IMG/VR virus record: IMGVR_UViG_3300029250_000062
Coordinates: 1-9,713 of that record
Direction: 5' to 3' (one strand)
Length of the DNA stretch: 9,713 nucleotides
Origin: a virus
Lineage: Duplodnaviria; Heunggongvirae; Uroviricota; Caudoviricetes
The position numbers and the translations under genes were made by a program. Below, piece by piece: positions 1 through 9,713 of the stretch (positions are counted from its first letter, which is position 1; every line of letters starts with the position of its first letter). The notes beneath the pieces were generated by a model. That model saw only the letters and a program-made list of their open reading frames with translations, was not told the DNA's origin and made no database searches.

Positions 1-1764
1 GAATATTACTTTGTCATTGCGCTGGCCGGGCAGTCCAACTCGATGTCTTTTGGCGAGGGGCTGCCGCTGCCGGAGACATATGACCGTCCGGACCCGCGTA
101 TTAAACAGCTGGCGCGTCGCAGTACGGTGACGCCGGGTGGTGCCGCCTGTAAATATAACGACATCATTCCGGCAGACCACTGTCTGCATGATGTGCAGGA
201 TATGAGTAACCTGAATCATCCTCATGCAGACCTGAGTAAGGGACAGTACGGTTGTGTGGGGCATGCTCTGCATGTTGCCAAAAAGCTGCTGCCGTTTATG
301 CCTGCGAATGCGGGTATCCTTCTTGTTCCATGTGGCCGTGGCGATCCGGGATTTACTGCGGGGGCCGAGGGGGCGTTTAACGAAGCGTCGGGAGCGACCG
401 CAGGCTCGTCCCTGTGGGGGGCGGATAAACCGCTGTATCATGACCTGGTCAGCAGAACCCGTGCGGCCCTGAAGAAAAATCCGAAGAACGTGCTGTTATC
501 AGTGATCTGGATGCAGGGAGAAAAAGATGTCAGTTCGGGGAGACATGCAGAACACAATGCGCTTTTCCTTGCCATGGTAAATCAGTTCCGTACGGAACTG
601 GCAGATGTGGCAGAGCAGTGTACTGGCGGGACAACGGCCAGCGTCCCGTGGATTTGCGGTGATACCACGTACTACTGGAAGGAAAGGTATGCAGCGCCGT
701 ATGAGGCGGTTTACGGTGGGTATAAAGGCAAAGCTGCGCAGAATATTCACTTTGTGCCGTTGATGACGGATGAGCATGGTGCGAATGTGCCGACAAACGA
801 GCCGTCAGAAGATCCGGACATTATCCCGGCGGGATACTATGGCGCTGCGTCACGCACTGCCAGTAACTGGACGTCAGCCGATCGTAAAACGCACTTCAGT
901 TCATGGGCGCGAAGAGGCCTTGTTTCAGACCGCCTGGCAGGTGCCATTTTGCAGTACGCCGGGCGGACATTATCGTTCCTTACCGGGCAGAGCGCACCGC
1001 AGTCGGGTGGTACAACTCCCGGTGATGATGTCAGTCCGGGGACACCGGATGTTGAGAAACCGCAGGATGGCGGTGTTGCTGGTACTGGTCATGATGAGGC
1101 CGTGAGCAGTACCAGGACGGTGGCTGAATATGATGCGAACAGTGGAAATGGTGTATGGACAGAGCAGCAGTGGGGGGCTGCCGGTGGCAAAGGCACTGTG
1201 ACTGATGACGGTGGACGGAAAGCGCTACGACTGGAAAAACAGCCCGGTAAACTGACGTCCTGGAAAATGTTCCGTACTGTTGCAGTGGAGGAGGCAAAAA
1301 ATCTTCTCAGCAAGGGGGGTGAAATTGCCGTACGGTTCAAAATTCCGGATGGAAGCGAACTGGTGAACGGACAGTTTGTCTTTGGTCTCTACTGGCCGGT
1401 GTCGCAGTGGGCGTCAGGCGCGGCAGCAAACAGTATGCTGGCATCATTCTTCCTTCAGACGGATGCATCAAATCTGAATCTTATGCACCACAAGGGCACG
1501 TCGAATGCACAACTGGGTACATTTGGTGCGTTTGACCATAACTGGCATACGGTTGTTTTCCGCTTTGCGGGAAATAACAGCGAAAGAGTCGTTCCGGTGA
1601 TTGATGGTACAGAGCAGACGGCGTTTGACCTTGTGATGTGGACAAATGATGGCTTTACAGCAGATACGCTGACGCTGACAGATATCACGGGGGCAAAAGC
1701 GACGTATCCTGTACTGCTTGATACGGTCACAGTCAAAGTTAACGAAAGCCGGGCATCATCATAA
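1..1764 (+). CDS. NanS-p-like sialate O-acetylesterase (SGNH/SASA-type hydrolase with C-terminal extension); 5'-truncated by window edge
   Basis: Frame is open from base 1; the listed ATG at 43 is internal. First in-window residues EYYFVIALAGQSNSMSFGEG contain the GQSN catalytic-serine block of SGNH/SASA esterases. Stop TAA at 1762-1764. Position immediately upstream of the lysis cassette matches where nanS-p sits in Stx-type lambdoid prophages (recollection, not searched). Confidence 0.7.
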   Translation, partial: EYYFVIALAGQSNSMSFGEGLPLPETYDRPDPRIKQLARRSTVTPGGAACKYNDIIPADHCLHDVQDMSNLNHPHADLSKGQYGCVGHALHVAKKLLPFMPANAGILLVPCGRGDPGFTAGAEGAFNEASGATAGSSLWGADKPLYHDLVSRTRAALKKNPKNVLLSVIWMQGEKDVSSGRHAEHNALFLAMVNQFRTELADVAEQCTGGTTASVPWICGDTTYYWKERYAAPYEAVYGGYKGKAAQNIHFVPLMTDEHGANVPTNEPSEDPDIIPAGYYGAASRTASNWTSADRKTHFSSWARRGLVSDRLAGAILQYAGRTLSFLTGQSAPQSGGTTPGDDVSPGTPDVEKPQDGGVAGTGHDEAVSSTRTVAEYDANSGNGVWTEQQWGAAGGKGTVTDDGGRKALRLEKQPGKLTSWKMFRTVAVEEAKNLLSKGGEIAVRFKIPDGSELVNGQFVFGLYWPVSQWASGAAANSMLASFFLQTDASNLNLMHHKGTSNAQLGTFGAFDHNWHTVVFRFAGNNSERVVPVIDGTEQTAFDLVMWTNDGFTADTLTLTDITGAKATYPVLLDTVTVKVNESRASS

Positions 1765-1769
1765 CCGGC

Positions 1770-1806
1770 AAAAAAAGCCGCCAGCGGCAGGAACGGAAGC
1801 TGGCGG
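1770..1806 (-). terminator. Putative rho-independent terminator for leftward (minus-strand) transcription
   Basis: 8-bp inverted repeat CCGCCAGC (1778-1785) / GCTGGCGG (1799-1806) preceded on the + strand by A7 (1770-1776), i.e. followed by U7 on the minus strand. The 13-nt loop is long for a terminator. Confidence 0.4.
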
Positions 1807-1903
1807 AGGTAATCCCAATGGAGAATGTAAAGAAAAGATGCTTTCGTATATCGGTTTTTTAAATGAAAACAGTTCTCATTGTCAACCATAACGGTAAGAA
1901 ACT

Positions 1904-2086
1904 ATGACATTTGTTCATCAGGTGATGCTGTACTTCTGTACGGCAGTCTGTGTTATGTATCTTCTTTCGGGTGGGTACAGGGCAGTGCGCGATTTCTGGC
2001 GCAGGCAGATTGATAAAAGGGCCGCAGAGAAAATCAGTGCCAGTCAGTCAGCCGGAAGCAAACCTGAAGATCCGCTCATTCCGTAG
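1904..2086 (+). CDS. Hypothetical small protein (60 aa) with one predicted N-terminal transmembrane helix
   Basis: ATG start, hydrophobic segment VMLYFCTAVCVMYLLSGG, weak SD. No recognisable family. Confidence 0.3.
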   Translation: MTFVHQVMLYFCTAVCVMYLLSGGYRAVRDFWRRQIDKRAAEKISASQSAGSKPEDPLIP

Positions 2087-2123
2087 TCACTTTCTTGACA
2101 ACACCTTTCAACGAGAAAATCCT

Positions 2124-2414
2124 ATGTCAGAAATAAAATCGCTGGTCACTGCTGAGGCAGTGAAGGAAGTCCTGCGCTCTGAAGAAGTCCGGAGCGCACT
2201 GAAACAGCAACTTCGGCAGAACCTTGAGGCGCGTCTTGATGCAGAAGTGGATGCCATTCTGGATGAATTGCTTGGTGCACAGCCGGAACCATCCCCGGAA
2301 CTGCTTCCGGAACCACAGGCGGAAGATGTCACCACGGAAAATGGTGATATTCAGCCGGAGTCACCGGTGACGGATATGACAGACACACAACCCGAACCGG
2401 GCACAATGCTGTAA
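2124..2414 (+). CDS. Hypothetical acidic protein (96 aa) with Pro/Glu-rich C-terminus
   Basis: In-frame ATG at 2124 inside listed ORF 1950..2414, placed just after the stop of the preceding small ORF (2084-2086). Helical charged N-terminal half, then PEPSPELLPEPQAED...TQPEPG low-complexity tail. Followed directly by a strong terminator. Confidence 0.45.
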   Translation: MSEIKSLVTAEAVKEVLRSEEVRSALKQQLRQNLEARLDAEVDAILDELLGAQPEPSPELLPEPQAEDVTTENGDIQPESPVTDMTDTQPEPGTML

Positions 2415-2425
2415 CGGCGGGGCAG

Positions 2426-2460
2426 GGCCATCAGTAAAACACTGATGGCCTTTTTTATTT
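2426..2460 (+). terminator. Rho-independent terminator
   Basis: Perfect 10-bp stem GGCCATCAGT (2426-2435) / ACTGATGGCC (2441-2450), 5-nt loop, then TTTTTTATTT (2451-2460). Confidence 0.6.
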
Positions 2461-2490
2461 CCGGTAGCACAGGTCTGTCGGGGCGGGGAT

Positions 2491-2706
2491 ATGTATCAGA
2501 TGGAAAAAATATCAACGGGCATAGCCTATGGTACTTCTGCGGGCAGTGCGGGTTACTGGTTTCTACAGTGGTTGGATCAGGTTACTCCGTCACAGTGGGC
2601 TGCTATCGGGGTTTTGGGGAGCCTGTGTCTGGGGTTCCTGACATACCTGACGAATCTGTATTTCAAGATTAAAGAAGACCGGCGCAAAGCTGCGCGGGGA
2701 GAGTAA
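2491..2706 (+). CDS. S: Class II holin, phage 21 S / 933W S-like (pinholin-type), dual-start motif
   Basis: 71 aa; N-terminal MYQMEK gives two in-frame Met starts (holin/antiholin pattern). Two hydrophobic segments (Gly/Ala-rich [18 protein letters not shown] and [23 protein letters not shown]) then charged tail [13 protein letters not shown]. Close to my recollection of S21/933W S. Directly upstream of the lysozyme gene. Confidence 0.85.
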
Positions 2707-2710
2707 GCTG

Positions 2711-3244
2711 ATGAGCAGGAAACTCCACTATGGTTTATCGGTAGCCGTTCTGGCGCTGATTGCCACAGGTGCTTCTGCGCCTGAAATCCTCGACCAGTTT
2801 CTTGACGAAAAAGAAGGTAACCACACCACGGCATACCGTGATGGTGCGGGGATCTGGACCATCTGCCGTGGTGCCATCATGGTGGATGGCAAACCTGTCG
2901 TCCCGGGCATGAAGTTGTCGAAGGAAAAATGCGCTCAGGTTAATGCCATTGAACGTGATAAGGCGCTGGCATGGGTGGAGAAAAACATCAAATTGCCACT
3001 GACTGAACCGCAGAAAGCGGGCATCGCGTCATTCTGTCCGTACAACATCGGGCCTTCGAAATGCTTCACCTCAACGTTTTACCGGAAACTGAACGCCGGA
3101 GACCGGAAAGGTGCATGTGCTGAAATCCGCCGATGGATATATGACGGCGGCAGGGACTGTCGGAATCGCTCAAATAACTGTTACGGGCAGGTATCGCGGC
3201 GTGACCAGGAGAGCGCGCTGGCGTGCTGGGGAATTGACAGATAA
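2711..3244 (+). CDS. R: SAR endolysin (T4-lysozyme-like muramidase, R21-type)
   Basis: 177 aa. N-terminal weakly hydrophobic signal-anchor-release segment LHYGLSVAVLALIATGASAP. E-8aa-D-5aa-T catalytic triad in EGNHTTAYRDGAGIWT. Starts 5 nt after the holin stop. Confidence 0.85.
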   Translation: MSRKLHYGLSVAVLALIATGASAPEILDQFLDEKEGNHTTAYRDGAGIWTICRGAIMVDGKPVVPGMKLSKEKCAQVNAIERDKALAWVEKNIKLPLTEPQKAGIASFCPYNIGPSKCFTSTFYRKLNAGDRKGACAEIRRWIYDGGRDCRNRSNNCYGQVSRRDQESALACWGIDR

Positions 3245-3333
3245 GCAGAATATTTTGCTGAAAAATGCGGTTTGCTCACACGGACGGATAACACGAAATC
3301 CTGCGAACTGACAAAAACTAAGTGAATAAAAGT

Positions 3334-3367
3334 AAAAACCCCGTTTGTTGGCTGCAAGCGGGGTTTT
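3334..3367. terminator. Putative intrinsic terminator (possibly bidirectional) inside the lysis cassette
   Basis: AAAAA-CCCCG (3334-3343) ... CGGGG-TTTT (3359-3367): GC stem flanked by an A-run upstream and a T-run downstream; 15-nt loop. Confidence 0.4.
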
Positions 3368-3400
3368 GTGTTTCTGACCTTGGATAAGGCAAGGGAGAAC

Positions 3401-3583
3401 ATGGAAAAGTATAAACGAATTCTGTTGAGGTTGACTATGAAAAACGGCCTTGAACTGAAAGCGCCTGTAACTGATGACATCAGCAGAGCACTGGCTTTTG
3501 CCATTAAGTGGGTGGCGGTCGGTGTTGCTGTGTCCCCGATGCTGTATGGGCTGGCAAAACTGGTCATTGCGTTGAAATCGTGA
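3401..3583 (+). CDS. Hypothetical small membrane protein (60 aa), C-terminal transmembrane helix
   Basis: ATG at 3401 preceded by SD AGGGAG (3391-3396). Basic N-terminus [12 protein letters not shown]-terminal hydrophobic [22 protein letters not shown]. Lies between endolysin and spanin genes. Confidence 0.45.
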
Positions 3584-3597
3584 AGGGAGGATTAAGC

Positions 3598-3729
3598 ATG
3601 TCAGACAAACTCATAACGCTGGCGAAGATCCTCTGTGTAATTGTCGGCATTTCATTTTCACTAATGCTGGTTGCTCTTTTTCTTTCCATGGCCTGGATGA
3701 TGTTGTCTTCGTCGGGGCTGCTGGGGTGA
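3598..3729 (+). CDS. Hypothetical small membrane protein (43 aa), single transmembrane helix
   Basis: ATG at 3598 preceded by strong SD AAGGGAGGA. Sequence [43 protein letters not shown]. Its stop TGA (3727-3729) overlaps the GTG start of Rz (GTGA), suggesting translational coupling. Confidence 0.45.
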
Positions 3730-4199
3730 ACATAAACCGAATGCTTTCCGCGTTTATCGTTATTCTGCTGGTGGCCTGTGGTGCGCTGTGGATGGCAACA
3801 GACCATTACCGTGATAACGCGATTACCTACAAAGCGCAGCGCGATAACAAAGCCAGTGAACTGAAGCTGGCGAACGCAACCATTACTGATATGCAGGTGC
3901 GCCAGCGCGATGTTGCTGCGCTCGATGCAAAATACTCGAGGGAATTAGCCGATGCGAGAGCTGAAAATGAAACTCTTCGCGCTGACGTTGCCGCTGGTCG
4001 TAAGCGCCTGCGGATCAACGCCACCTGTCCAGGCTCCGTGCGTGAAGCCCCCACCACCTCCGGCGTGGATAATGCAACCGGCCCCAGACTGGCAGACGCC
4101 GCTGAACGGGATTATTTCATCCTCAGAGAACGGTTGATGACAATGCAGAAGCAGCTGGAAGGGGCACAGCTATACATTCGTGAGCAATGCCTCAGATAA
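3726..4199 (+). CDS. Rz: Rz inner-membrane spanin (i-spanin)
   Basis: N-terminal TM helix ([18 protein letters not shown]) then [14 protein letters not shown]...[25 protein letters not shown], which tracks lambda Rz closely (recollection). GTG start at 3726; alternative ATG at 3741. Confidence 0.85.
3952..4137 (+). CDS. Rz1: Rz1 outer-membrane lipoprotein spanin (o-spanin), embedded in the +1 frame of Rz
   Basis: Lipobox LVVSAC, proline-rich [26 protein letters not shown] typical of lambda-type Rz1. SD GAGGGAA upstream; alternative start ATG 3967. Fully nested within Rz. Confidence 0.8.
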
Positions 4200-4588
4200 A
4201 AACCGGCCAAGGATAATCCGCTGAAGATTTGCCGGTGGCTAAAGGGGCCAAGCCACCAATTTACGTAATTAGCCACAGAGATACAATATTTTAGTTTACT
4301 TATGTATTTCTGAAGCATGTCTTTGCGCAGTATCGTCGCCGTATTCCCACATGAACAGAGACCGCAGCCCTACCGGGAGACTCCTCTGCGCGAGTGTGCG
4401 GGGATAATCAAAAACGATACACACCGGGGTTTACCGCGTTAACGGAGCGCGGCGTTGTCCCCTCATGGTCGCTGGTCCGGTGCGATGGTGGAAGAAACCG
4501 GACGATGTGTTACCTCGCAAGCTCTGTTATGTCATGTGTCTGATTTGTGATTTAAGTCGGATAATTGTCGTTGCCATTAAACAGAGGA

Positions 4589-4631
4589 TTGATGACCGAC
4601 AGGGTGGCATTGTTAGAATAAGACTTATTCT
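4589..4631 (+). promoter_or_regulatory. Putative sigma70 promoter (extended -10) with overlapping perfect palindromic operator-like site
   Basis: -35-like TTGATG (4589-4594), 19-bp spacer, extended -10 TGtTAGAAT (4611-4619). Palindrome AGAATAAG-a-CTTATTCT (4615-4631, 8-bp perfect arms) overlaps the -10/+1 region and ends 14 bp before the downstream lipoprotein start. Confidence 0.3.
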
Positions 4632-4645
4632 TATCTGTGCCGGGA

Positions 4646-4978
4646 ATGAAAATGAAAAGAAATCTTCCGTTAATTATTTTGTTGTCTTCTCTGGTTATGG
4701 GCTGTACGCAACATAAAACAGATATGCCCCGACAGTTGGTTAAGGCATTACCACAATATCCGGCCTATGCAGCGGCAAATTATATAAAGGGACGGGTTGA
4801 TGTGAAGTTTGATATTGGTGCTGATGGTACTGTCACCCGAATTGAGTTTATCCGTTCAGAGCCGCACCATTTGTTTGATGAGCAGGTTGTAAAGGCGATG
4901 GCAAAATGGCGATTTGAGAAGGACAGGCCGTGTAAAGGCGTGAAGAAAACGTTTATCTTTAGTCCTTCTGCACCCTGA
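4646..4978 (+). CDS. Lipoprotein consisting essentially of a TonB C-terminal-like domain (moron candidate)
   Basis: Signal peptide with lipobox (MKMKRNLPLIILLSSLVMG-C; Thr at +2 suggests outer-membrane sorting). Mature part LPQYPAYAAANYIKGRVDVKFDIGADGTVTRIEFIRSEPHHLFDEQVVKAMAKWRFE parallels the E. coli TonB C-terminal domain (PQYP...G.V.V.F.....DG.V.......P...F...V..AM..WR(Y/F), from memory). Alternative start ATG 4652 has better SD spacing. Confidence 0.7.
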   Translation: MKMKRNLPLIILLSSLVMGCTQHKTDMPRQLVKALPQYPAYAAANYIKGRVDVKFDIGADGTVTRIEFIRSEPHHLFDEQVVKAMAKWRFEKDRPCKGVKKTFIFSPSAP

Positions 4979-5011
4979 TTATTTCATCAGAAATTAATTA
5001 TCACTCTGTTG

Positions 5012-5113
5012 TTATTCTGTACATCCCGGCAGGGTAAGTCTTGTTCCGTCGGATATGAAGATGAAATATTGTTGGAGGACAGTGGGTACCTGCTCCTGTA
5101 ACCGAACGTTCAT
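5012..5113 (-). CDS. Possible 33-aa ORF translationally coupled to the upstream RHH gene (speculative)
   Basis: On the minus strand the ATG overlaps the RHH stop (ATGA). Product MNVRLQEQVPTVLQQYFIFISDGTRLTLPGCTE. Below the length cutoff of the supplied ORF track; no family recognised. Confidence 0.2.
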   Translation of the reverse strand: MNVRLQEQVPTVLQQYFIFISDGTRLTLPGCTE

Positions 5114-5310
5114 TTCTCGTTATTTTTCATGCTGGCCGGGCGCAGATGCGTTGCATCTGTTGCCAGCCTTCTCCTGCAGGCTTCAATAACCCACGCTGAA
5201 AAGTTACCGGACCCTTTATGCTCAAGGGCGATGCTGATCTGTTCAATCATGTGATTGGGGAAACGGATATTGCGGGTTGTGGTTCTGCGGGTCCGGTTTT
5301 TCGATGACAT
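5110..5310 (-). CDS. Arc/Mnt-like ribbon-helix-helix DNA-binding protein (possibly YlcI/YnfO DUF3950-like)
   Basis: 66 aa from ATG at 5310-5308 with SD AAGGAAA 8 nt upstream on the minus strand. RNIRFPNHMIEQISIALEHKGSGNFSAWVIEACRRRL aligns in pattern with Arc repressor FNLRWPREVLDLVRKVAEENGRSVNSEIYQRVMESF (beta-strand then two helices). Opposite strand to the surrounding late genes. Confidence 0.65.
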   Translation of the reverse strand: MSSKNRTRRTTTRNIRFPNHMIEQISIALEHKGSGNFSAWVIEACRRRLATDATHLRPASMKNNEK

Positions 5311-5351
5311 ATTTATTTCCTTTACTGATTGCCATATGACGGGGATTTTAC

Positions 5352-5717
5352 ATGGCTCAGCTTCGTACACTCCAGAGCAGAATCAAAACACTGAATACCC
5401 GACGGGTGAATATTCTGAAGGGGGAGCAGCGTCGTGTCAGTGGCAGTGCACGTGTTTCCCTCAAGCGTCATATCTGGCTGAGGGACGCCGGGCAGTGCTG
5501 TATCTGTGGTCGTGTGGTTGACCTCTGTGACAGTGAACTTGATCACCGAATTGCACTTCAGTTCGGTGGTGGTAATGAGGAGACGAATCTCTGGACGCTC
5601 TGTACCGAATGCCATCGACAAAAGTCTGCTCGTGAAGCGGCGGGTGGTATGCCGGACCCGACGCTGCCGGAGGTGTCCGGAGGTAGTGGCAGAGCGGACG
5701 ACATCATCGGACTGTAA
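5352..5717 (+). CDS. HNH endonuclease (packaging-associated, HK97 gp74-like)
   Basis: CxxC...DH...N...CxxCH arrangement: CCICGRVVD, SELDHRIALQFGGGNEETNLWTLCTECHRQK. Sits immediately upstream of the cos-like region and terS, the usual place in HK97-like packaging modules. Confidence 0.85.
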   Translation: MAQLRTLQSRIKTLNTRRVNILKGEQRRVSGSARVSLKRHIWLRDAGQCCICGRVVDLCDSELDHRIALQFGGGNEETNLWTLCTECHRQKSAREAAGGMPDPTLPEVSGGSGRADDIIGL

Positions 5718-5810
5718 CCCGACCCGGGGGGGGGGATCATCCGGCGTAAAAAACGATCGCTTTGGACACCGCGCCCCCTCTCACGCAGAGAAAAAATTCC
5801 CGTTTCAGGG

Positions 5811-5936
5811 CAGTTAACATGTTAACTGGCTGCCCGGGCATTTTTGCGGTTTTTATCTTTATTATTCAGTTTGTTGTGCGGAAAAAATGTTAACTGGCTT
5901 TTTCAGCAAATGTTAACCAGGCAGCAGTTAACATTT
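5811..5936. repeat. Array of five ATGTTAAC/GTTAACAT motifs (palindrome, direct repeat, inverted pair); putative cosB / terminase small-subunit recognition sites
   Basis: 18-bp perfect palindrome CAGTTAACATGTTAACTG (5811-5828); 12-bp direct repeat ATGTTAACTGGC (5819-5830 and 5887-5898); inverted pair AAATGTTAAC (5908-5917) / GTTAACATTT (5927-5936) with 9-bp spacer. All in non-coding DNA between HNH and terS, ending about 70 bp before the terS start. Confidence 0.45.
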
Positions 5937-6008
5937 GCGGCATGAGACGCCGGGAAAAATGGGCTGAACCATACCCGGCTGAGTGCGTTCTGGACCCGGG
6001 AGGAGGCT

Positions 6009-6572
6009 GTGCTGACAACGCAAAAACGAAAATTTGCGCTGGCGCTCATGTCCGGGAAAAACAAAACAGCGTCAGCCATTGCCGCCGGTTATTCGGCGAA
6101 GACCGCCAGGGTTAAAGGCTCGCAGCTGGCAAAAGATCCGGAGGTGCTTGCGTTTATAGCCCGTAAACAATGCGAGACGGTGGAGGTGGATGAGGTTCCT
6201 GTTTACCGGCAGAAAAAATCAGAGCAGGAGGATAAACCCCGTCGCCGTGAGGCGGCTGCAATACCACAGCCGGACGAAAACAATCCGGAGATGCCACCGT
6301 CCGCGGTGATGTCTCCTGGTATTGAATATATGGAGGATGGTCTTCCCGATCCGGTGAAAGCCATGGGGCGGATCCTGGTGGAAAACCTCTGCATTGATCC
6401 GAAACTGGCACTGGATGCGGCCTGGCGTCTGGCGCAGTTCACGCACCATAAAAAAGGGGATACCGGGAAAAAATCGGCAAAAGGTGATGCCGCGAAAAAA
6501 GCGGCTAACCGTTTTGCGGTGCCACCGCCACCCAGACTGGTGGTGAATAACGATAATGAGGGCAACGGATGA
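6009..6572 (+). CDS. terS: Terminase small subunit (HTH-containing)
   Basis: GTG start at 6009 with SD GGGAGG/AGGAGG (5998-6006). N-terminal LTTQKRKFALALMSGKNKTASAIAAGYSAKTARVKGSQL matches the usual terS signature (K.FA..Y....N.T.AAI.AGYS.KTA...GS.L). Stop TGA overlaps the terL ATG (ATGA at 6569-6572). Confidence 0.85.
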   Translation: MLTTQKRKFALALMSGKNKTASAIAAGYSAKTARVKGSQLAKDPEVLAFIARKQCETVEVDEVPVYRQKKSEQEDKPRRREAAAIPQPDENNPEMPPSAVMSPGIEYMEDGLPDPVKAMGRILVENLCIDPKLALDAAWRLAQFTHHKKGDTGKKSAKGDAAKKAANRFAVPPPPRLVVNNDNEGNG

Positions 6573-8230
6573 TACCTGTATGGAGCACAGCCTGCCCGGA
6601 CTGGGCAGAGCGCCTGAAAAAGGGGCTGTCGATTATTCCGGATCCGATTTATCCGGACGAGGCCGCACATGCCCTGGCGATTTTTAAACAACTGCGGATT
6701 GTGGATGCACCTGGTAGCCCGACGTTCGGGGAGTCCTGTGCACGGTGGGTGTTTGACCTGGTGGCGGCCCTGTTTGGCTCCTACGATGCGCAGACCGGTG
6801 TACGCCATATCAAGGAAGTTTTTATCCTTATCCCCAAGAAAAACTCGAAGTCCACGCTGGCCGCGGGGATCATGATGACGGCGCTGTTACTGAACTGGCG
6901 GCAGGCGGCGGGTTACACGATTCTGGCCCCGACTGTGGAGGTGGCGGCCAACGCCTTCAACCCTGCCCGGGATATGGTACGACGTGACGATGATCTGGAT
7001 GACCTCTGCCAGGTACAGACCCATATCCGGACCATCACCCACAGGGTGACAGACACCACCCTGAAGGTGGTGGCAGCCGATCCGAATACGGTGTCCGGTA
7101 TCAAGTCCGTGGGTACGCTGATTGATGAGTTGTGGCTGTTTGGCAAGCAGTGCAAGGCGGAGGACATGTTACGTGAAGCCATAGGCGGCCTTGCCTCCCG
7201 CCCGGAAGGGTTTGTGGTGTATACGACCACCCAGTCGAATGAACCGCCCGCCGGGGTGTTCAGACAGAAACTGCAGTACGCCCGGGATGTGCGCGACGGC
7301 AAAATTCATGATCCGCACTTTCTGCCGGTGATATTTGAACACCCTCCTGAAATGGTGGAAAGCGGGACTCACCTGCTGATGGAAAACCTCGCCATGGTCA
7401 ATCCGAATCTCGGCTATTCAGTGGATGAGGCCTTTCTGTACCGGGAGTACCGTAAAGCCCGGGAAGCCGGTGAAGAGACATTCCGGGGGTTCATGTCAAA
7501 ACACGCCAATGTGGAAATTGGTCTTGCCCTGCGCTCTGACCGCTGGGCGGGGGCTGATTTCTGGGAAGAGCAGGGCCGTTGTATCAGCCTGGACGATATC
7601 CTGCGTCGTGCTGATGTGGTGACGGTGGGGATTGACGGCGGAGGGCTGGATGATCTGCTGGGGATGTATGTGATTGGGCGTGACCGGGAGACCCGCGAAT
7701 GGCTGGGCTGGGGCCATGCCTGGGCGCATGAAACCGCGGTGGTCCGACGGAAGAGCGAGGCGTCCCGGTTTCAGGATCTTGTTGCCTGTGGAGATATGAC
7801 CATTGTCCGGCGTGTCGGGGATGACACGGCGGAAGTGGCGGAATATGTGCGTCGCATTCATGAGGCTGAGTTACTGGACCATATCGGTATTGACCCGTCA
7901 GGGGTGGGGCAGATTCTGGATTCACTGGCGGAAGCCGGGATCCCCGACGGAATTGTGGTGGGGATAAGCCAGGGCTGGAAACTGGGCGGGGCCATTAAAA
8001 CCACCGAGCGCAAACTGGCTGAAGGGGTGCTGGTGCATGGTGACCAGCCCCTGATGGCCTGGTGTGTCGGCAATGCCCGGGTGGAGCCTAAAGGTAACGC
8101 CATTCTTATCACCAAACAGGCCAGTGGACGGGGAAAAATTGACCCGCTGATGGCGCTGTTCAATGCGGTCTCCCTGATGTCCCTTAACCCGGAACCGAAA
8201 AAGAAAGAATATGCGGTTTTTTTCATATAA
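6569..8230 (+). CDS. terL: Terminase large subunit (ATPase + RNase H-like nuclease domains)
   Basis: 553 aa. Walker A-like ILIPKKNSKSTLAAG, Walker B-like GTLIDELW, C-terminal nuclease-type acidic cluster VTVGIDGGGLDDLLGMYVIG. Translationally coupled to terS. Confidence 0.9.
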   Translation: MIPVWSTACPDWAERLKKGLSIIPDPIYPDEAAHALAIFKQLRIVDAPGSPTFGESCARWVFDLVAALFGSYDAQTGVRHIKEVFILIPKKNSKSTLAAGIMMTALLLNWRQAAGYTILAPTVEVAANAFNPARDMVRRDDDLDDLCQVQTHIRTITHRVTDTTLKVVAADPNTVSGIKSVGTLIDELWLFGKQCKAEDMLREAIGGLASRPEGFVVYTTTQSNEPPAGVFRQKLQYARDVRDGKIHDPHFLPVIFEHPPEMVESGTHLLMENLAMVNPNLGYSVDEAFLYREYRKAREAGEETFRGFMSKHANVEIGLALRSDRWAGADFWEEQGRCISLDDILRRADVVTVGIDGGGLDDLLGMYVIGRDRETREWLGWGHAWAHETAVVRRKSEASRFQDLVACGDMTIVRRVGDDTAEVAEYVRRIHEAELLDHIGIDPSGVGQILDSLAEAGIPDGIVVGISQGWKLGGAIKTTERKLAEGVLVHGDQPLMAWCVGNARVEPKGNAILITKQASGRGKIDPLMALFNAVSLMSLNPEPKKKEYAVFFI

Positions 8231-8255
8231 CCCTGTTCACACTGTAACCATCACG

Positions 8256-8277
8256 AACCGCTCCGGCGGTTTTTTTA
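8256..8277 (+). terminator. Putative intrinsic terminator between terL and the head genes
   Basis: Stem AACCGC (8256-8261) / GCGGTT (8266-8271), tetraloop TCCG, followed by a T-run (through about 8280). Short stem, so modest confidence. Confidence 0.4.
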
Positions 8278-8293
8278 TTTTCAGGAGGCTGAT

Positions 8294-9713
8294 GTGACTC
8301 TTAAACGGGCCTGTTCCCTGCTGACGGTGAAATCCTTCAGTGAGGATGAACGGGTGATCACCGGGATTGCGTCAACGCCTTCTCCGGATCGGGATGGTGA
8401 CATCCTGGAGCCGGAGGGCGCGGAGTTTGGCAGTGCGATCCCGTTTCTCTGGCAGCATGACCATTCCCGCCCGGTGGGGCAGTGTACGGTGCGCCGGGTC
8501 AGCGAAGGGCTGGAAATCACGGCAACACTGGTGAAGCCCGTACCGGATATGCCGTCGCAACTGGCTGCCCGGCTGGATGAGGTCTGGGCGGCCATTAAGA
8601 CCGGGCTGGTCAGGGGGCTGTCCGTGGGCTTCCGTCCCCATGAATACACCTTTCTGGACGGAGGCGGACTGCATTTTCTGCGCTGGGAACTGATGGAGGT
8701 GTCTGCCGTCACCGTGCCCGCGAATGCGGAATGCACCATCCGGACCATTAAATCTTACGACCGCCCGTTTTCTGCCGCGTCCGGCAACCGGAAACCGGTG
8801 GTGAAAATCGCATCTTCTGCCGGCGCTGCGGCACAGTCAACAACCGTTTTTCATAAGGAAAAGACCATAATGAATATTGGCGAACAGATTAAAAGTTTTG
8901 AAAACAAGCGTGCAGCGCTGGCAGCCTCCCTTGAGGAGGTCATGACCAAAGCCGCAGAGGAAGGGCGCACGCTGGATGTGGAGGAGGAAGAGCATTACGA
9001 CAACACCGCAGCGGAAATCCGTCAGGTGGATGCGCACCTGAAGCGCCTGCGTGAACTGGAAGCCGGTAAGGCCGCCACGGCGCAGCCGGTGAAACAGGCC
9101 GGTAACGGGAATGTGGCCGCGGTGGCTTCTGCGCCGGTGATCCGTGTGGAGCAGAAACTGGATAAGGGGATTGGCTTCGCCCGCTTTGCCAAATCGCTGG
9201 CTGCGGCTAAAGGCGTCCGATCTGAAGCCCTGGAAGTGGCCCGTCGTCAGTATCCGGATGACAGTCGTCTGCATCATGTCCTGAAATCGGCAGTGGGCGC
9301 GGGGACCACCACGGATCCGCAGTGGGCAGGCAGCCTGTCTGAATATCAGGAATACGCACAGGACTTTATTGATTACCTGCGTCCGCAGACCATTATCGGG
9401 CGATTTGGTCAGGGCGGGATCCCTGCACTTCGTCAGGTGCCGTTCAATATCCGTGTGCACGCCCAGGTGTCCGGCGGTGCTGCCGGCTGGGTGGGTGAGG
9501 GTAAGGCAAAACCCCTGACGAAGTTTGATTTTGAATCCATCACCTTCAGTCATGCGAAGGTGTCGGCCATTGCGGTACTGACGGAAGAATTGATCCGTTT
9601 TTCCAGTCCGGCTGCTGATGCACTGGTCCGTAATGCGCTGGCGGAAGCGGTGGTGGCGCGTCTGGATACAGACTTTGTGGACCCGAAAAAAGCCGCAGTG
9701 GCAGATGTCTCCC
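8294..9713 (+). CDS. HK97-family prohead protease fused in-frame to major capsid protein (delta domain + HK97 fold); 3'-truncated by window edge
   Basis: GTG 8294 preceded by SD AGGAGG (8283-8288). I translated this frame codon by codon and found no stop from 8294 to 9712; that is why it is absent from the ORF track. Protease motifs GIASTPSPDRDGDILEP, PFLWQHD, VSAVTVPANAEC; then Ala/Ser/Gly-rich linker; then from Met (ATG 8870) a coiled-coil delta-like region and capsid-like body (DKGIGFARFAKSL... GWVGEGKAKP... AVLTEELIRFSSPAA). Confidence 0.75.
   Translation, partial: MTLKRACSLLTVKSFSEDERVITGIASTPSPDRDGDILEPEGAEFGSAIPFLWQHDHSRPVGQCTVRRVSEGLEITATLVKPVPDMPSQLAARLDEVWAAIKTGLVRGLSVGFRPHEYTFLDGGGLHFLRWELMEVSAVTVPANAECTIRTIKSYDRPFSAASGNRKPVVKIASSAGAAAQSTTVFHKEKTIMNIGEQIKSFENKRAALAASLEEVMTKAAEEGRTLDVEEEEHYDNTAAEIRQVDAHLKRLRELEAGKAATAQPVKQAGNGNVAAVASAPVIRVEQKLDKGIGFARFAKSLAAAKGVRSEALEVARRQYPDDSRLHHVLKSAVGAGTTTDPQWAGSLSEYQEYAQDFIDYLRPQTIIGRFGQGGIPALRQVPFNIRVHAQVSGGAAGWVGEGKAKPLTKFDFESITFSHAKVSAIAVLTEELIRFSSPAADALVRNALAEAVVARLDTDFVDPKKAAVADVS
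8870..9713 (+). CDS. Possible independently translated major capsid protein from internal in-frame start (nested in the protease-capsid ORF)
   Basis: ATG 8870 preceded by AAGGAAAAG (8855-8863). Product begins MNIGEQIKSFENKRAALAASLEEVMTKAAEEG, a typical N-terminal scaffold-like delta domain. Analogous in logic to lambda C/Nu3 nested translation. Confidence 0.4.
   Translation, partial: MNIGEQIKSFENKRAALAASLEEVMTKAAEEGRTLDVEEEEHYDNTAAEIRQVDAHLKRLRELEAGKAATAQPVKQAGNGNVAAVASAPVIRVEQKLDKGIGFARFAKSLAAAKGVRSEALEVARRQYPDDSRLHHVLKSAVGAGTTTDPQWAGSLSEYQEYAQDFIDYLRPQTIIGRFGQGGIPALRQVPFNIRVHAQVSGGAAGWVGEGKAKPLTKFDFESITFSHAKVSAIAVLTEELIRFSSPAADALVRNALAEAVVARLDTDFVDPKKAAVADVS

Follow-up and report, generated by a model that had tools for sequence, protein, structure and literature searches.

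The morons of lambdoid phages, in the sense of Juhala and Hendrix, are accessory genes inserted between conserved late genes (cited in PMC4104026). Small membrane proteins also take part in phage lysis. The releasin gp25 of phage Mu, a DUF2730 protein of 99 residues, adopts an N-out/C-in topology and has an acidic cytoplasmic domain of 73 residues (PMC9239132). Lcc6 of LambdaSo, a lambda-like Shewanella prophage with a pinholin and an endolysin of the signal-anchor-release (SAR) type, is a single-pass protein of ~65 residues that has its transmembrane domain (TMD) at the N-terminus and a 43-residue cytoplasmic tail; it is encoded near int/xis, outside the lysis cassette, and is essential for lysis (bioRxiv 10.1101/2024.01.23.576932). 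Here we analyse two small open reading frames (ORFs) between the endolysin gene R and the spanin gene Rz in a 9,713-nt stretch of DNA (IMG/VR record IMGVR_UViG_3300029250_000062, positions 1 to 9,713; hereafter the window), which is the late region of a lambdoid Escherichia coli prophage. ORF1 (60 residues, ATG 3401 to stop 3583) and ORF2 (43 residues, ATG 3598 to stop 3729) lie on the plus strand behind a terminator-like hairpin at 3335-3367. Our preferred, though tentative, reading is that they are accessory genes on a portable, moron-like module led by this hairpin, which serve a non-essential tuning of late lysis at the endolysin-spanin junction.

The window-type insert resembles the lambdoid morons in several respects. 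It is present or absent between R and Rz, its cargo is swapped among related prophages, its GC content is below that of its flanks (0.43-0.49 across the insert vs 0.52-0.55 in the flanking genes), and the unit recurs at several late-operon junctions. A classical moron is expressed in the lysogen and is flanked by a promoter of its own upstream and by a terminator downstream, whereas in the window the hairpin is upstream, no promoter was seen, and the last ORF runs into Rz.

Like gp25, ORF1 is small and, as predicted, membrane-tethered with almost no periplasmic part, and its gene is near those of the endolysin and spanins. It differs from gp25 in its length of 60 residues, its predicted N-in, tail-anchored topology, its basic N-terminus, the absence of DUF2730 and its occurrence with non-SAR endolysins as well; gp25 is an accessory lysis factor, and the same role could be extended to ORF1 only by analogy. 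Lcc6 is a small transmembrane (TM) protein needed at the holin step, with which ORF1 and ORF2 are compared by description, not by sequence, and neither ORF has any testable defining feature of gp25 or Lcc6. Type I toxins such as Hok, Ldr and TisB are, like ORF1 and ORF2, small single-TM peptides that are sometimes prophage-borne, but the window has no supported antisense RNA gene and no toxin-mRNA promoter, and the asymmetry of its hairpin is the wrong way round. Direct sequence membership places the proteins in PHROG families (1115, 4493 and 3246 for ORF1 and s28, 4906 for ORF2, and 6632 for s45, E = 5.5e-29), s28 and s45 being small ORFs that fill the same gap in other prophages. These families are sequence clusters only and hold no information on mechanism; all are annotated as "unknown function".

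Results

ORF1 matches phrog_1115 over residues 1-60 (E = 1.4e-42), and also phrog_4493 and phrog_3246. Its relatives were gathered from IMG/VR, from complete E. coli genomes and by looking up contigs. For 29 distinct DNA alleles the ratio of nonsynonymous to synonymous substitution rates (dN/dS) is 0.20 (estimates 0.18-0.20), compared with 0.86 and 4.5 for the other two frames in a first set of 20 alleles, and the variable sites are distributed 19/7/40 over the three codon positions. Comparison with Salmonella alleles gave a proportion of synonymous differences (pS) of 0.42-0.49 and of nonsynonymous differences (pN) of 0.10-0.12 (Fisher p ~1e-6). These allele comparisons clearly point to a genuine gene under purifying selection. 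In the protein, a basic N-terminal helix is joined through an MKNGLExxAP linker to a C-terminal TM helix, which bears a GxxxS motif (G41xxxS45). Its best 19-residue hydrophobic window (residues 38-56) falls inside a hydrophobic stretch of about residues 30-58, and the AlphaFold2 model (pLDDT 78.5) has a helix at 2-14, a loop and a long helix at 21-59. ORF1 is accordingly predicted, with its N-in orientation taken from the flanking charges, to be a tail-anchored single-pass inner-membrane protein of which only a few residues would be periplasmic.

When 1.84 billion cluster representatives were searched with a profile of ORF1, only 21 clusters at 50% identity were returned, so the family is narrow; a word-indexed profile search gave 204 clusters at 90% identity, and a pattern scan of the GTDB representative genomes found no relative. 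The hits that carry a name belong to Escherichia, Salmonella, Klebsiella, Serratia, Enterobacter and Yersinia, and all are labelled "hypothetical protein". Distant relatives retain the basic N-terminal helix (xYKRxxxRLxM) and the linker in the form MKNGLExDAP, and many of them end in (I/V)RWW in place of ALKS. These conserved features of distant members, together with a similarity of z = 5.5 and the match of s28 to phrog_4493, link ORF1 to s28 (MSAELIRAMAFAIRIVAIAVLVWAIRWW).

One stretch of ORF1 stands out. Nucleotides 7-54 (3407-3454, 48 nt) show zero substitutions between the E. coli and Salmonella allele groups, where ~13 are expected, and the rest of the ORF differs at ~25% of sites between the same groups; the exception is the E. 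coli allele at locus L091, which has a single change at nt 27. Candidate causes of this invariance are a recent recombination tract, an internal Shine-Dalgarno (SD) sequence with a start at Met13, and a weak minus-strand promoter-like site. The internal GAGG-N6/7-ATG (Met13) is kept even in the divergent allele of locus L089.

ORF2 matches phrog_4906 over residues 1-43 (E = 2.1e-23). Its dN/dS is 0.40 (24 alleles), and in the most divergent allele pair pS is 0.58 vs a pN of 0.22 (p = 3e-4); on this measure ORF2 is a gene under purifying selection that is weaker than in ORF1. For comparison with both ORFs, alternative frames gave a dN/dS of 0.8-4.5. The hydrophobic core spans residues 11-29 (Kyte-Doolittle value 2.89) of a TM segment at about residues 11-33, in which V14, V16, G17, S19 and F20 are invariant in the alignment and which carries the motif G17xxxS21. 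We predict, again with the N-in orientation taken from the flanking charges, a single-pass inner-membrane protein with ~8-14 periplasmic residues. All of the phage records that matched by tblastn cover at least 80% of ORF2 (276/276), and the whole 43 codons are covered in 40/40 of the records listed. A possible origin of ORF2 as a decayed duplicate of the N-terminal TMD of Rz (KILCVIVG vs RVLCVVII) was rejected on similarities of z = -0.2 to 3.4, the lowest being that with the Rz N-terminus of the window itself (z = -0.2). We likewise rejected the idea that ORF1 and ORF2 are one frameshifted two-TMD gene: a single read-through fusion was found, each ORF has its own SD, and each occurs alone.

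Database searches add little to these assignments. Pfam returned nothing for ORF1 and only a sub-threshold DUF3930 match for ORF2, with no match of either to a holin family or DUF2730; NCBIfam and PDB searches with both ORFs found nothing. The PADLOC defence models did not match ORF1, ORF2, s28, s45 or two other small ORFs. RefSeq and GenBank label ORF1 and ORF2 as hypothetical, and full-text literature searches, run with the peptides themselves and with descriptions of ORFs upstream of Rz or in the R-Rz gap, yielded nothing relevant. A Smith-Waterman comparison of ORF1 with the S21 holin was not significant (z = 1.9). Spanin features were also sought in ORF1 and ORF2, and neither has a bridging periplasmic domain (~2 residues of ORF1 extend past the AlphaFold2 helix) or a lipobox.

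The Rz i-spanin gene occupies 3726..4199 on the plus strand (PF03245, E = 1e-48), with a probable start at GTG 3726, and the gene for the Rz1 o-spanin lipoprotein is embedded in it (3952..4137, plus strand; PF06085, E = 1e-21). In every arrangement compared, the last small ORF ends 0-11 nt from the Rz start or overlaps it. Comparison of the junctions revealed that Rz in other alleles starts with ATG-AAC-CGN (MNR...), 1-11 nt past the stop of the preceding small ORF, and that the canonical start reads ATA-AAC-CGA in the window allele. Here the TGA of ORF2 (3727-3729) overlaps GTG 3726 (GTGA), which is in frame with Rz; initiation at this GTG would give MNINRM... and keep the N-terminal Asn-Arg. 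The RefSeq start, ATG 3741, is without an SD and leaves no basic residue ahead of the TM segment. Phage PhiR12_1 (PV340549), which has been propagated on MG1655, matches the window at 100% identity over 3245-3740. Its record starts Rz at about 3792, by which the TM anchor is lost; this annotation is wrong. Since the canonical ATG is lost and the remaining starts are GTG 3726 or the SD-less ATG 3741, the sequence suggests that Rz initiation in the window allele probably depends on coupling to ORF2.

The original prediction had been made from the letters of the window, and much of its description holds: the hairpin, the 60-residue and 43-residue ORFs and the GTGA overlap are all where it had placed them. 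Its two small single-pass membrane-protein genes are borne out by coding selection (dN/dS 0.18-0.20 for ORF1 and about 0.4 for ORF2), by hydropathy and by one predicted N-in TM segment each. The strong ribosome-binding sites that it gave to both ORFs, which lie in the late lysis operon, agree with the purine-rich SDs read in the sequence, and the translational coupling of ORF2 to Rz that it proposed is probable for the window allele with its canonical Rz ATG changed to ATA. Conservation in related prophages, which it had named as a check, was found for both ORFs in hundreds to thousands of prophages.

The small-ORF module is headed by the intrinsic-terminator-like hairpin, AAAACCCCGTTTGTTGGCTGCAAGCGGGGTTTT (AAAACCCCG...CGGGGTTTT), which a scan located at 3335..3367 on the plus strand with 14 pairs and which is followed by a U-rich tail, GTGTTTCTG. 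The sense-strand RNA has a dG of -21.6 kcal/mol (z = -3.4; 1/200 shuffles as stable) and the antisense strand a dG of -14.3 kcal/mol. Stem pairs 6-8 vary compensatorily (pair 6: T.G, T-A, A-T, G-C), and several variable stem pairs are G.U on the plus strand and become A.C mismatches on the minus strand. In most hairpin variants the sense strand is 3-7 kcal/mol more stable than the antisense strand. These compensatory changes, the plus-only G.U pairs and the greater stability of the sense strand indicate, at the level of sequence, that the structure is under selection in the sense RNA.

Behind the hairpin, at 3368..3400 on the plus strand, follows a conserved leader of ~35 nt (CTGACCTTG.ATAAGGCAAGGGAGAA) that contains the ORF1 SD (CTGACCTTGGATAAGGCAAGGGAGAAC); ATG 3401 is preceded by AAGGCAAGGGAGAAC. 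The leader is near-identical among E. coli, Salmonella and baseplate-context copies, and in Salmonella a 26-nt insertion brings in a second SD. Hairpin and leader are kept in front of ORF1 whichever gene is upstream, be it R, ant, a GH19 endolysin gene, a baseplate spike gene or, in a GH108 cassette, a 93-residue ORF, and the same hairpin and leader also head unrelated small-TM ORFs. ORF2 has an SD of its own in the intergenic segment at 3584..3597 of the plus strand (AGGGAGGA), the purine-rich GAAGGGAGGA lying six nucleotides upstream of ATG 3598. A crude consensus scan of the plus strand at 3245-3400 found no promoter-like site, no terminator hairpin was found between ORF2 and Rz, and an Rfam search of the region gave only sub-threshold, terminator-like hits. 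An mRNA structure hiding the ORF1 SD was considered and set aside: a small CCTTG/CAAGG stem is predicted, with an unremarkable z of about -1.4. The region does not correspond to a known prophage small RNA (sRNA) either, as the Pas sRNAs map between the esterase and holin genes rather than between R and Rz, and the convergent EcOnc sRNAs (Tree et al.) occupy the moron site that lies beside stx, downstream of PR'.

The DNA of ORF1-ORF2 is present in 1741/5426 complete E. coli genomes. An ORF2-like gene stands directly before Rz in 276 phage records, mostly of Shiga-toxin (Stx) phages; in Min27, BP-4795 (as its ORF50) and phi191 the order is S-R-ant-ORF2-like-Rz. Phages of the TL-2011c and H-19B types have the order R-hairpin-s45-Rz, with s45 (phrog_6632) unannotated in TL-2011c. 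Overall, an ORF2-like gene or s45 immediately precedes Rz in the great majority of the Stx phages sampled. Like ORF1 and ORF2, s45 and s28 have a low dN/dS (0.18 and 0.32). At least six families of small-TM ORFs make up the variable array in the R-Rz gap, and the same hairpin and leader usually stand before them. Among the loci collected, which are a biased sample, the contents were hairpin-ORF1-ORF2 in 85, hairpin-s45 in 48, hairpin-ORF1-s28 in 11 and ant-ORF2 in 6, so that the cargo leading into Rz varies as s45-Rz, ORF1-ORF2-Rz or ORF1-s28-Rz; at locus L094 four small-TM ORFs follow in a row (hairpin-s34-ORF1'-f50-s28). In the Qin prophage of K-12, rrrQ (R) overlaps rzpQ (Rz) with no intervening genes, and R and Rz of lambda overlap in the same manner, again without such genes. 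The absence of ORF1 and ORF2 from these model prophages (lambda, phage 21, K-12) explains why they have been overlooked so far.

Other insertions and chimeras occur at this junction. A DNA methyltransferase gene encoding ~310 residues lies between the small ORFs and Rz at loci L021 and L033 (about 3337-4272) and L225 (2634-3566), which confirms the R-Rz junction as an insertion hot spot. The small protein P0120, from a 554-nt ENA contig, joins the N-terminus of the S21 holin to the C-terminus of ORF1; P0039 is the ORF1-ORF2 read-through fusion, and P0090 and P0094 join the N-terminus of ORF2 to the C-terminus of ORF1. Such chimeras suggest either frequent recombination among TM-coding segments or assembly artefacts. 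At L225 (2188-2304) and L227 (2172-2276), a hydrophobic ORF of 34-38 residues (VYVAAMICFVAAALLA...GWGWFLF) overlaps the 3' end of the SAR endolysin gene and sits just before the hairpin-ORF1 module.

ORF1 is not tied to one lysis system. In Salmonella it lies directly before Rz with three holin/endolysin combinations: the first pairs a PF16080 holin and a SAR lysozyme, the second has an S21-like holin together with lysozyme and ant, and in the third (L087) a cytoplasmic GH19 endolysin accompanies a lambda-type holin. Its homologues co-occur with PF04971, PF16080, PF05106 and GH108-cassette holins, with no single holin type. In the E. coli prophage at L091, a GH108 endolysin gene is followed by hairpin-ORF1-ORF2 and then by a 60-residue lipoprotein gene instead of Rz. 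L091 (2855-3037) and L228 (2620-2799) both have no recognisable Rz, with an ORF1-family gene followed by a gene for a lipoprotein of ~60 residues; the L091 lipoprotein belongs to phrog_7528, of unknown function. In Yersinia enterocolitica chromosomes (L231-L233, 3001-3601), a 49-residue ORF1-like RWW protein gene abuts Rz in a degraded prophage remnant beside host genes and IS110. This protein was found in >1600 blocks of the contig collection, from very many assemblies, and the remnant appears to be widely retained.

Relatives of ORF1 also occur within structural-gene clusters. In Klebsiella, Serratia and others they lie between the baseplate spike and sheath-initiator genes, and further relatives are found 3' of tail-fibre genes, between major tail and chaperone genes, and just before the tape-measure gene (L176). 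At the metagenomic locus L223 (3423-4403) the major-capsid gene is followed by a 48-nt hairpin element in three tandem copies, each with one or two small-TM ORFs of the family behind it; two of these ORFs end in RWW. The module is portable and moron-like in view of its varied holin and endolysin partners, its other late-operon sites, its swapped cargo and its dip in GC content, and the R-Rz junction is its preferred site.

The lysis cassette of the window begins with an S21-type class II holin gene (2491..2706, plus strand; PF04971 Phage_holin_2_1, E = 5e-35), followed by a gene for a lysozyme-family endolysin (2711..3244, plus strand; PF00959, E = 8e-25) with an N-terminal, weakly hydrophobic SAR-like segment, MSRKLHYGLSVAVLALIATGASA. 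Upstream lies a SASA-family esterase gene (43-1764). ORFs with DUF1378 and DUF826 are found between the esterase gene and a strong terminator-like hairpin (AGGGCCATCAG...CTGATGGCCTTTTTT) at 2424-2452, which is placed between the DUF826 ORF and the holin gene. The prophage Pas sRNAs PasA and PasC are reported next to the holin-lysozyme operon, downstream of a sialate esterase gene (bioRxiv 10.64898/2026.05.13.724894), and the 2424-2452 hairpin may be a candidate Pas locus. On the 3' side of Rz/Rz1 come a lipoprotein-like ORF of the TonB_C type, then a minus-strand YnfO-like ORF, and after these an HNH endonuclease gene and the terminase subunit genes. The first of these, a small, lipoprotein-like ORF (MKMKRNLPLIILLSSLVMGC...) at 4637-4978 with a TonB C-terminal domain (PF03544, E = 1e-14), is in the position where lambda carries bor, and it is probably another moron.

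Discussion

The arrangement described here would be explained if a module consisting of a sense-strand hairpin, a conserved leader with an SD and one or more small membrane-protein ORFs had colonised the endolysin-spanin junction of an S21-type lambdoid prophage. Given that the scan detected no promoter and that the module is on the late strand, ORF1 and ORF2 are probably transcribed only from the Q-antiterminated late transcript that reads through the hairpin, which would silence them in the lysogen or stabilise a processed mRNA. Both products would insert N-in as single-pass proteins with almost nothing in the periplasm and may act on late membrane events by TM-helix packing through their conserved G/S-xxx-S motifs. 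The likely effect would be a non-essential tuning of lysis (holin triggering, proton motive force or spanin behaviour) that is not specific to SAR endolysins. In the window allele, ribosomes that end at the ORF2 TGA would reinitiate at the overlapping Rz GTG. Modulation of lysis timing by ORF1 and ORF2 is in this sense possible.

Several observations weigh against this model of a lysis-tuning module. Lambda and phage 21 presumably lyse without ORF1- or ORF2-like genes, and with K-12 Qin also free of them any lysis role must be dispensable. ORF2 is only moderately constrained, and in some prophages its C-terminus is frameshifted, with the first 27 residues and the TM core intact. The relatives of ORF1 within structural-gene clusters mean that its activity need not concern lysis. 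The invariance of ORF1 nt 7-54 is unexplained by the module. Promoters were sought with a crude consensus scan, which leaves expression in the lysogen possible, and the expression, membrane insertion and phenotype of ORF1 and ORF2 are predictions.

The main rival to lysis tuning is that ORF1 and ORF2 are morons unrelated to lysis, which provide superinfection exclusion or a membrane-level defence or anti-defence function in the manner of HK97 gp15. The presence, absence and swapping of the ORFs among similar cassettes, the chimeras, the tandem arrays and the GC dip would all be expected of such cargo. The sites in structural clusters favour it too, among them those 3' of tail-fibre genes and the slot just before the tape-measure gene at L176, which is the slot of the HK97 gp15 moron. 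We nevertheless regard this reading as rather unlikely, because the lack of a promoter and the terminator-like hairpin upstream on the sense strand argue against expression in the lysogen, PADLOC gave no match, the best PHROG matches are without exclusion annotation, and the last small ORF tightly abuts Rz in E. coli, Salmonella and Yersinia cassettes. It is more doubtful still that the two proteins are dedicated regulators of the pinholin and SAR endolysin, whether antiholin-, lysis-inhibitor- or releasin-like. Their genes do sit between the SAR endolysin gene and Rz in a pinholin cassette, and small membrane-tethered proteins are known to control such systems, as with Mu gp25 (PMC9239132) and LambdaSo Lcc6 (bioRxiv 10.1101/2024.01.23.576932). 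The TM segment of ORF1 (WVAVGVAVS) is also loosely like the glycine zipper of S21 TMD2 (WAAIGVLGS), and the short contig of P0120 encodes the chimera of S21 N-terminus and ORF1 C-terminus. However, the similarity of ORF1 to S21 is not significant, and neither holin families nor DUF2730 were matched in Pfam. ORF1 is predicted to have a topology opposite to that of gp25 and Lcc6, with a cytoplasmic part that is basic, not acidic. At L087, moreover, ORF1 fills the same slot after a cytoplasmic GH19 endolysin that is paired with a lambda-type holin, and at L091 it does so after a GH108 endolysin; its relatives lie in baseplate, capsid and tail-fibre clusters.

Two further readings are less likely than lysis-unrelated cargo. 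The peptides might be inert and their ORFs no more than translated spacers that work in cis, bringing ribosomes to Rz once DNA had been inserted between R and Rz. The constant proximity of the last small ORF to the Rz start (0-11 nt, or overlapping, in every arrangement), the overlap of rrrQ with rzpQ in K-12 and of R with Rz in lambda, and the tolerance of the ORF2 C-terminus to frameshifts are all consistent with this. We consider it very improbable, since amino-acid conservation exceeds what coupling needs (dN/dS of 0.2 for ORF1 and 0.18 for s45, and TM residues of ORF2 that do not vary), ORF1 does not adjoin Rz in the window, and family members occur at loci without Rz. Alternatively, ORF1 could be the membrane toxin of a system similar to type I toxin-antitoxins, repressed by a cis-antisense RNA that arises from the 5' end of ORF1 and terminates at the hairpin. 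A minus-strand promoter-like site, TAGTCA-18-TATACT (3437..3408), has both hexamers inside the invariant nt 7-54, and the resulting minus-strand RNA of ~70 nt would cover the SD and start of ORF1 and end at the hairpin and a U-run. To this we give very little credence: the promoter match (9/12) is no better than expected from shuffled sequence, the divergent L089 allele has not retained its -35 element, and the hairpin is weaker on the minus strand, where the G.U pairs of the plus strand become A.C mismatches. Rfam gave no match beyond the sub-threshold terminator-like hit, and the same hairpin heads unrelated ORFs that are without the promoter-like sequence.

Set against the original prediction, the locus is more ordinary in its position and less bound to its neighbours. 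The claim that cassettes of this type normally run without genes between R and Rz fits K-12 Qin and lambda, but not natural E. coli prophages. The arrangement is not unusual: roughly one complete E. coli genome in three has its DNA, and an ORF2-like gene precedes Rz in most Stx phages. The feature is common, its proteins are already on record as hypothetical, and it does not amount to a surprising new system. A function linked to the SAR endolysin or pinholin, also suggested there, is unlikely given the ORF1 homologues behind the GH19 endolysin with its lambda-type holin, behind GH108 and in structural clusters. An exclusion factor acting in the lysogen, another of its proposals, is not favoured with no promoter found and a sense-strand terminator-like hairpin upstream.

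The apparent loss of the Rz start codon in the window allele has a practical consequence, in that annotation pipelines misplace or truncate Rz. More broadly, the hairpin-led module is a convenient case in which to study how genes for small membrane proteins spread through the late operons of phages, and if ORF1 and ORF2 turned out to have no phenotype, the R-Rz junction would be a moron hot spot and no part of the machinery of lysis. The release of Shiga toxin depends on lysis by the phage (PMC8065619), and if the ORF2-like and s45 genes affected the timing of lysis or the expression of spanins, this would bear on toxin release. A bolder version of our reading, which we consider unlikely, is that the hairpin, the leader and the tail-anchored protein make up an undescribed mobile late-operon module and that ORF1 and the RWW proteins are new spanin-associated or envelope-acting lysis factors. 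If that were so, ORF1 and the RWW proteins would co-determine the timing of lysis in Stx phages and hence the release of toxin.

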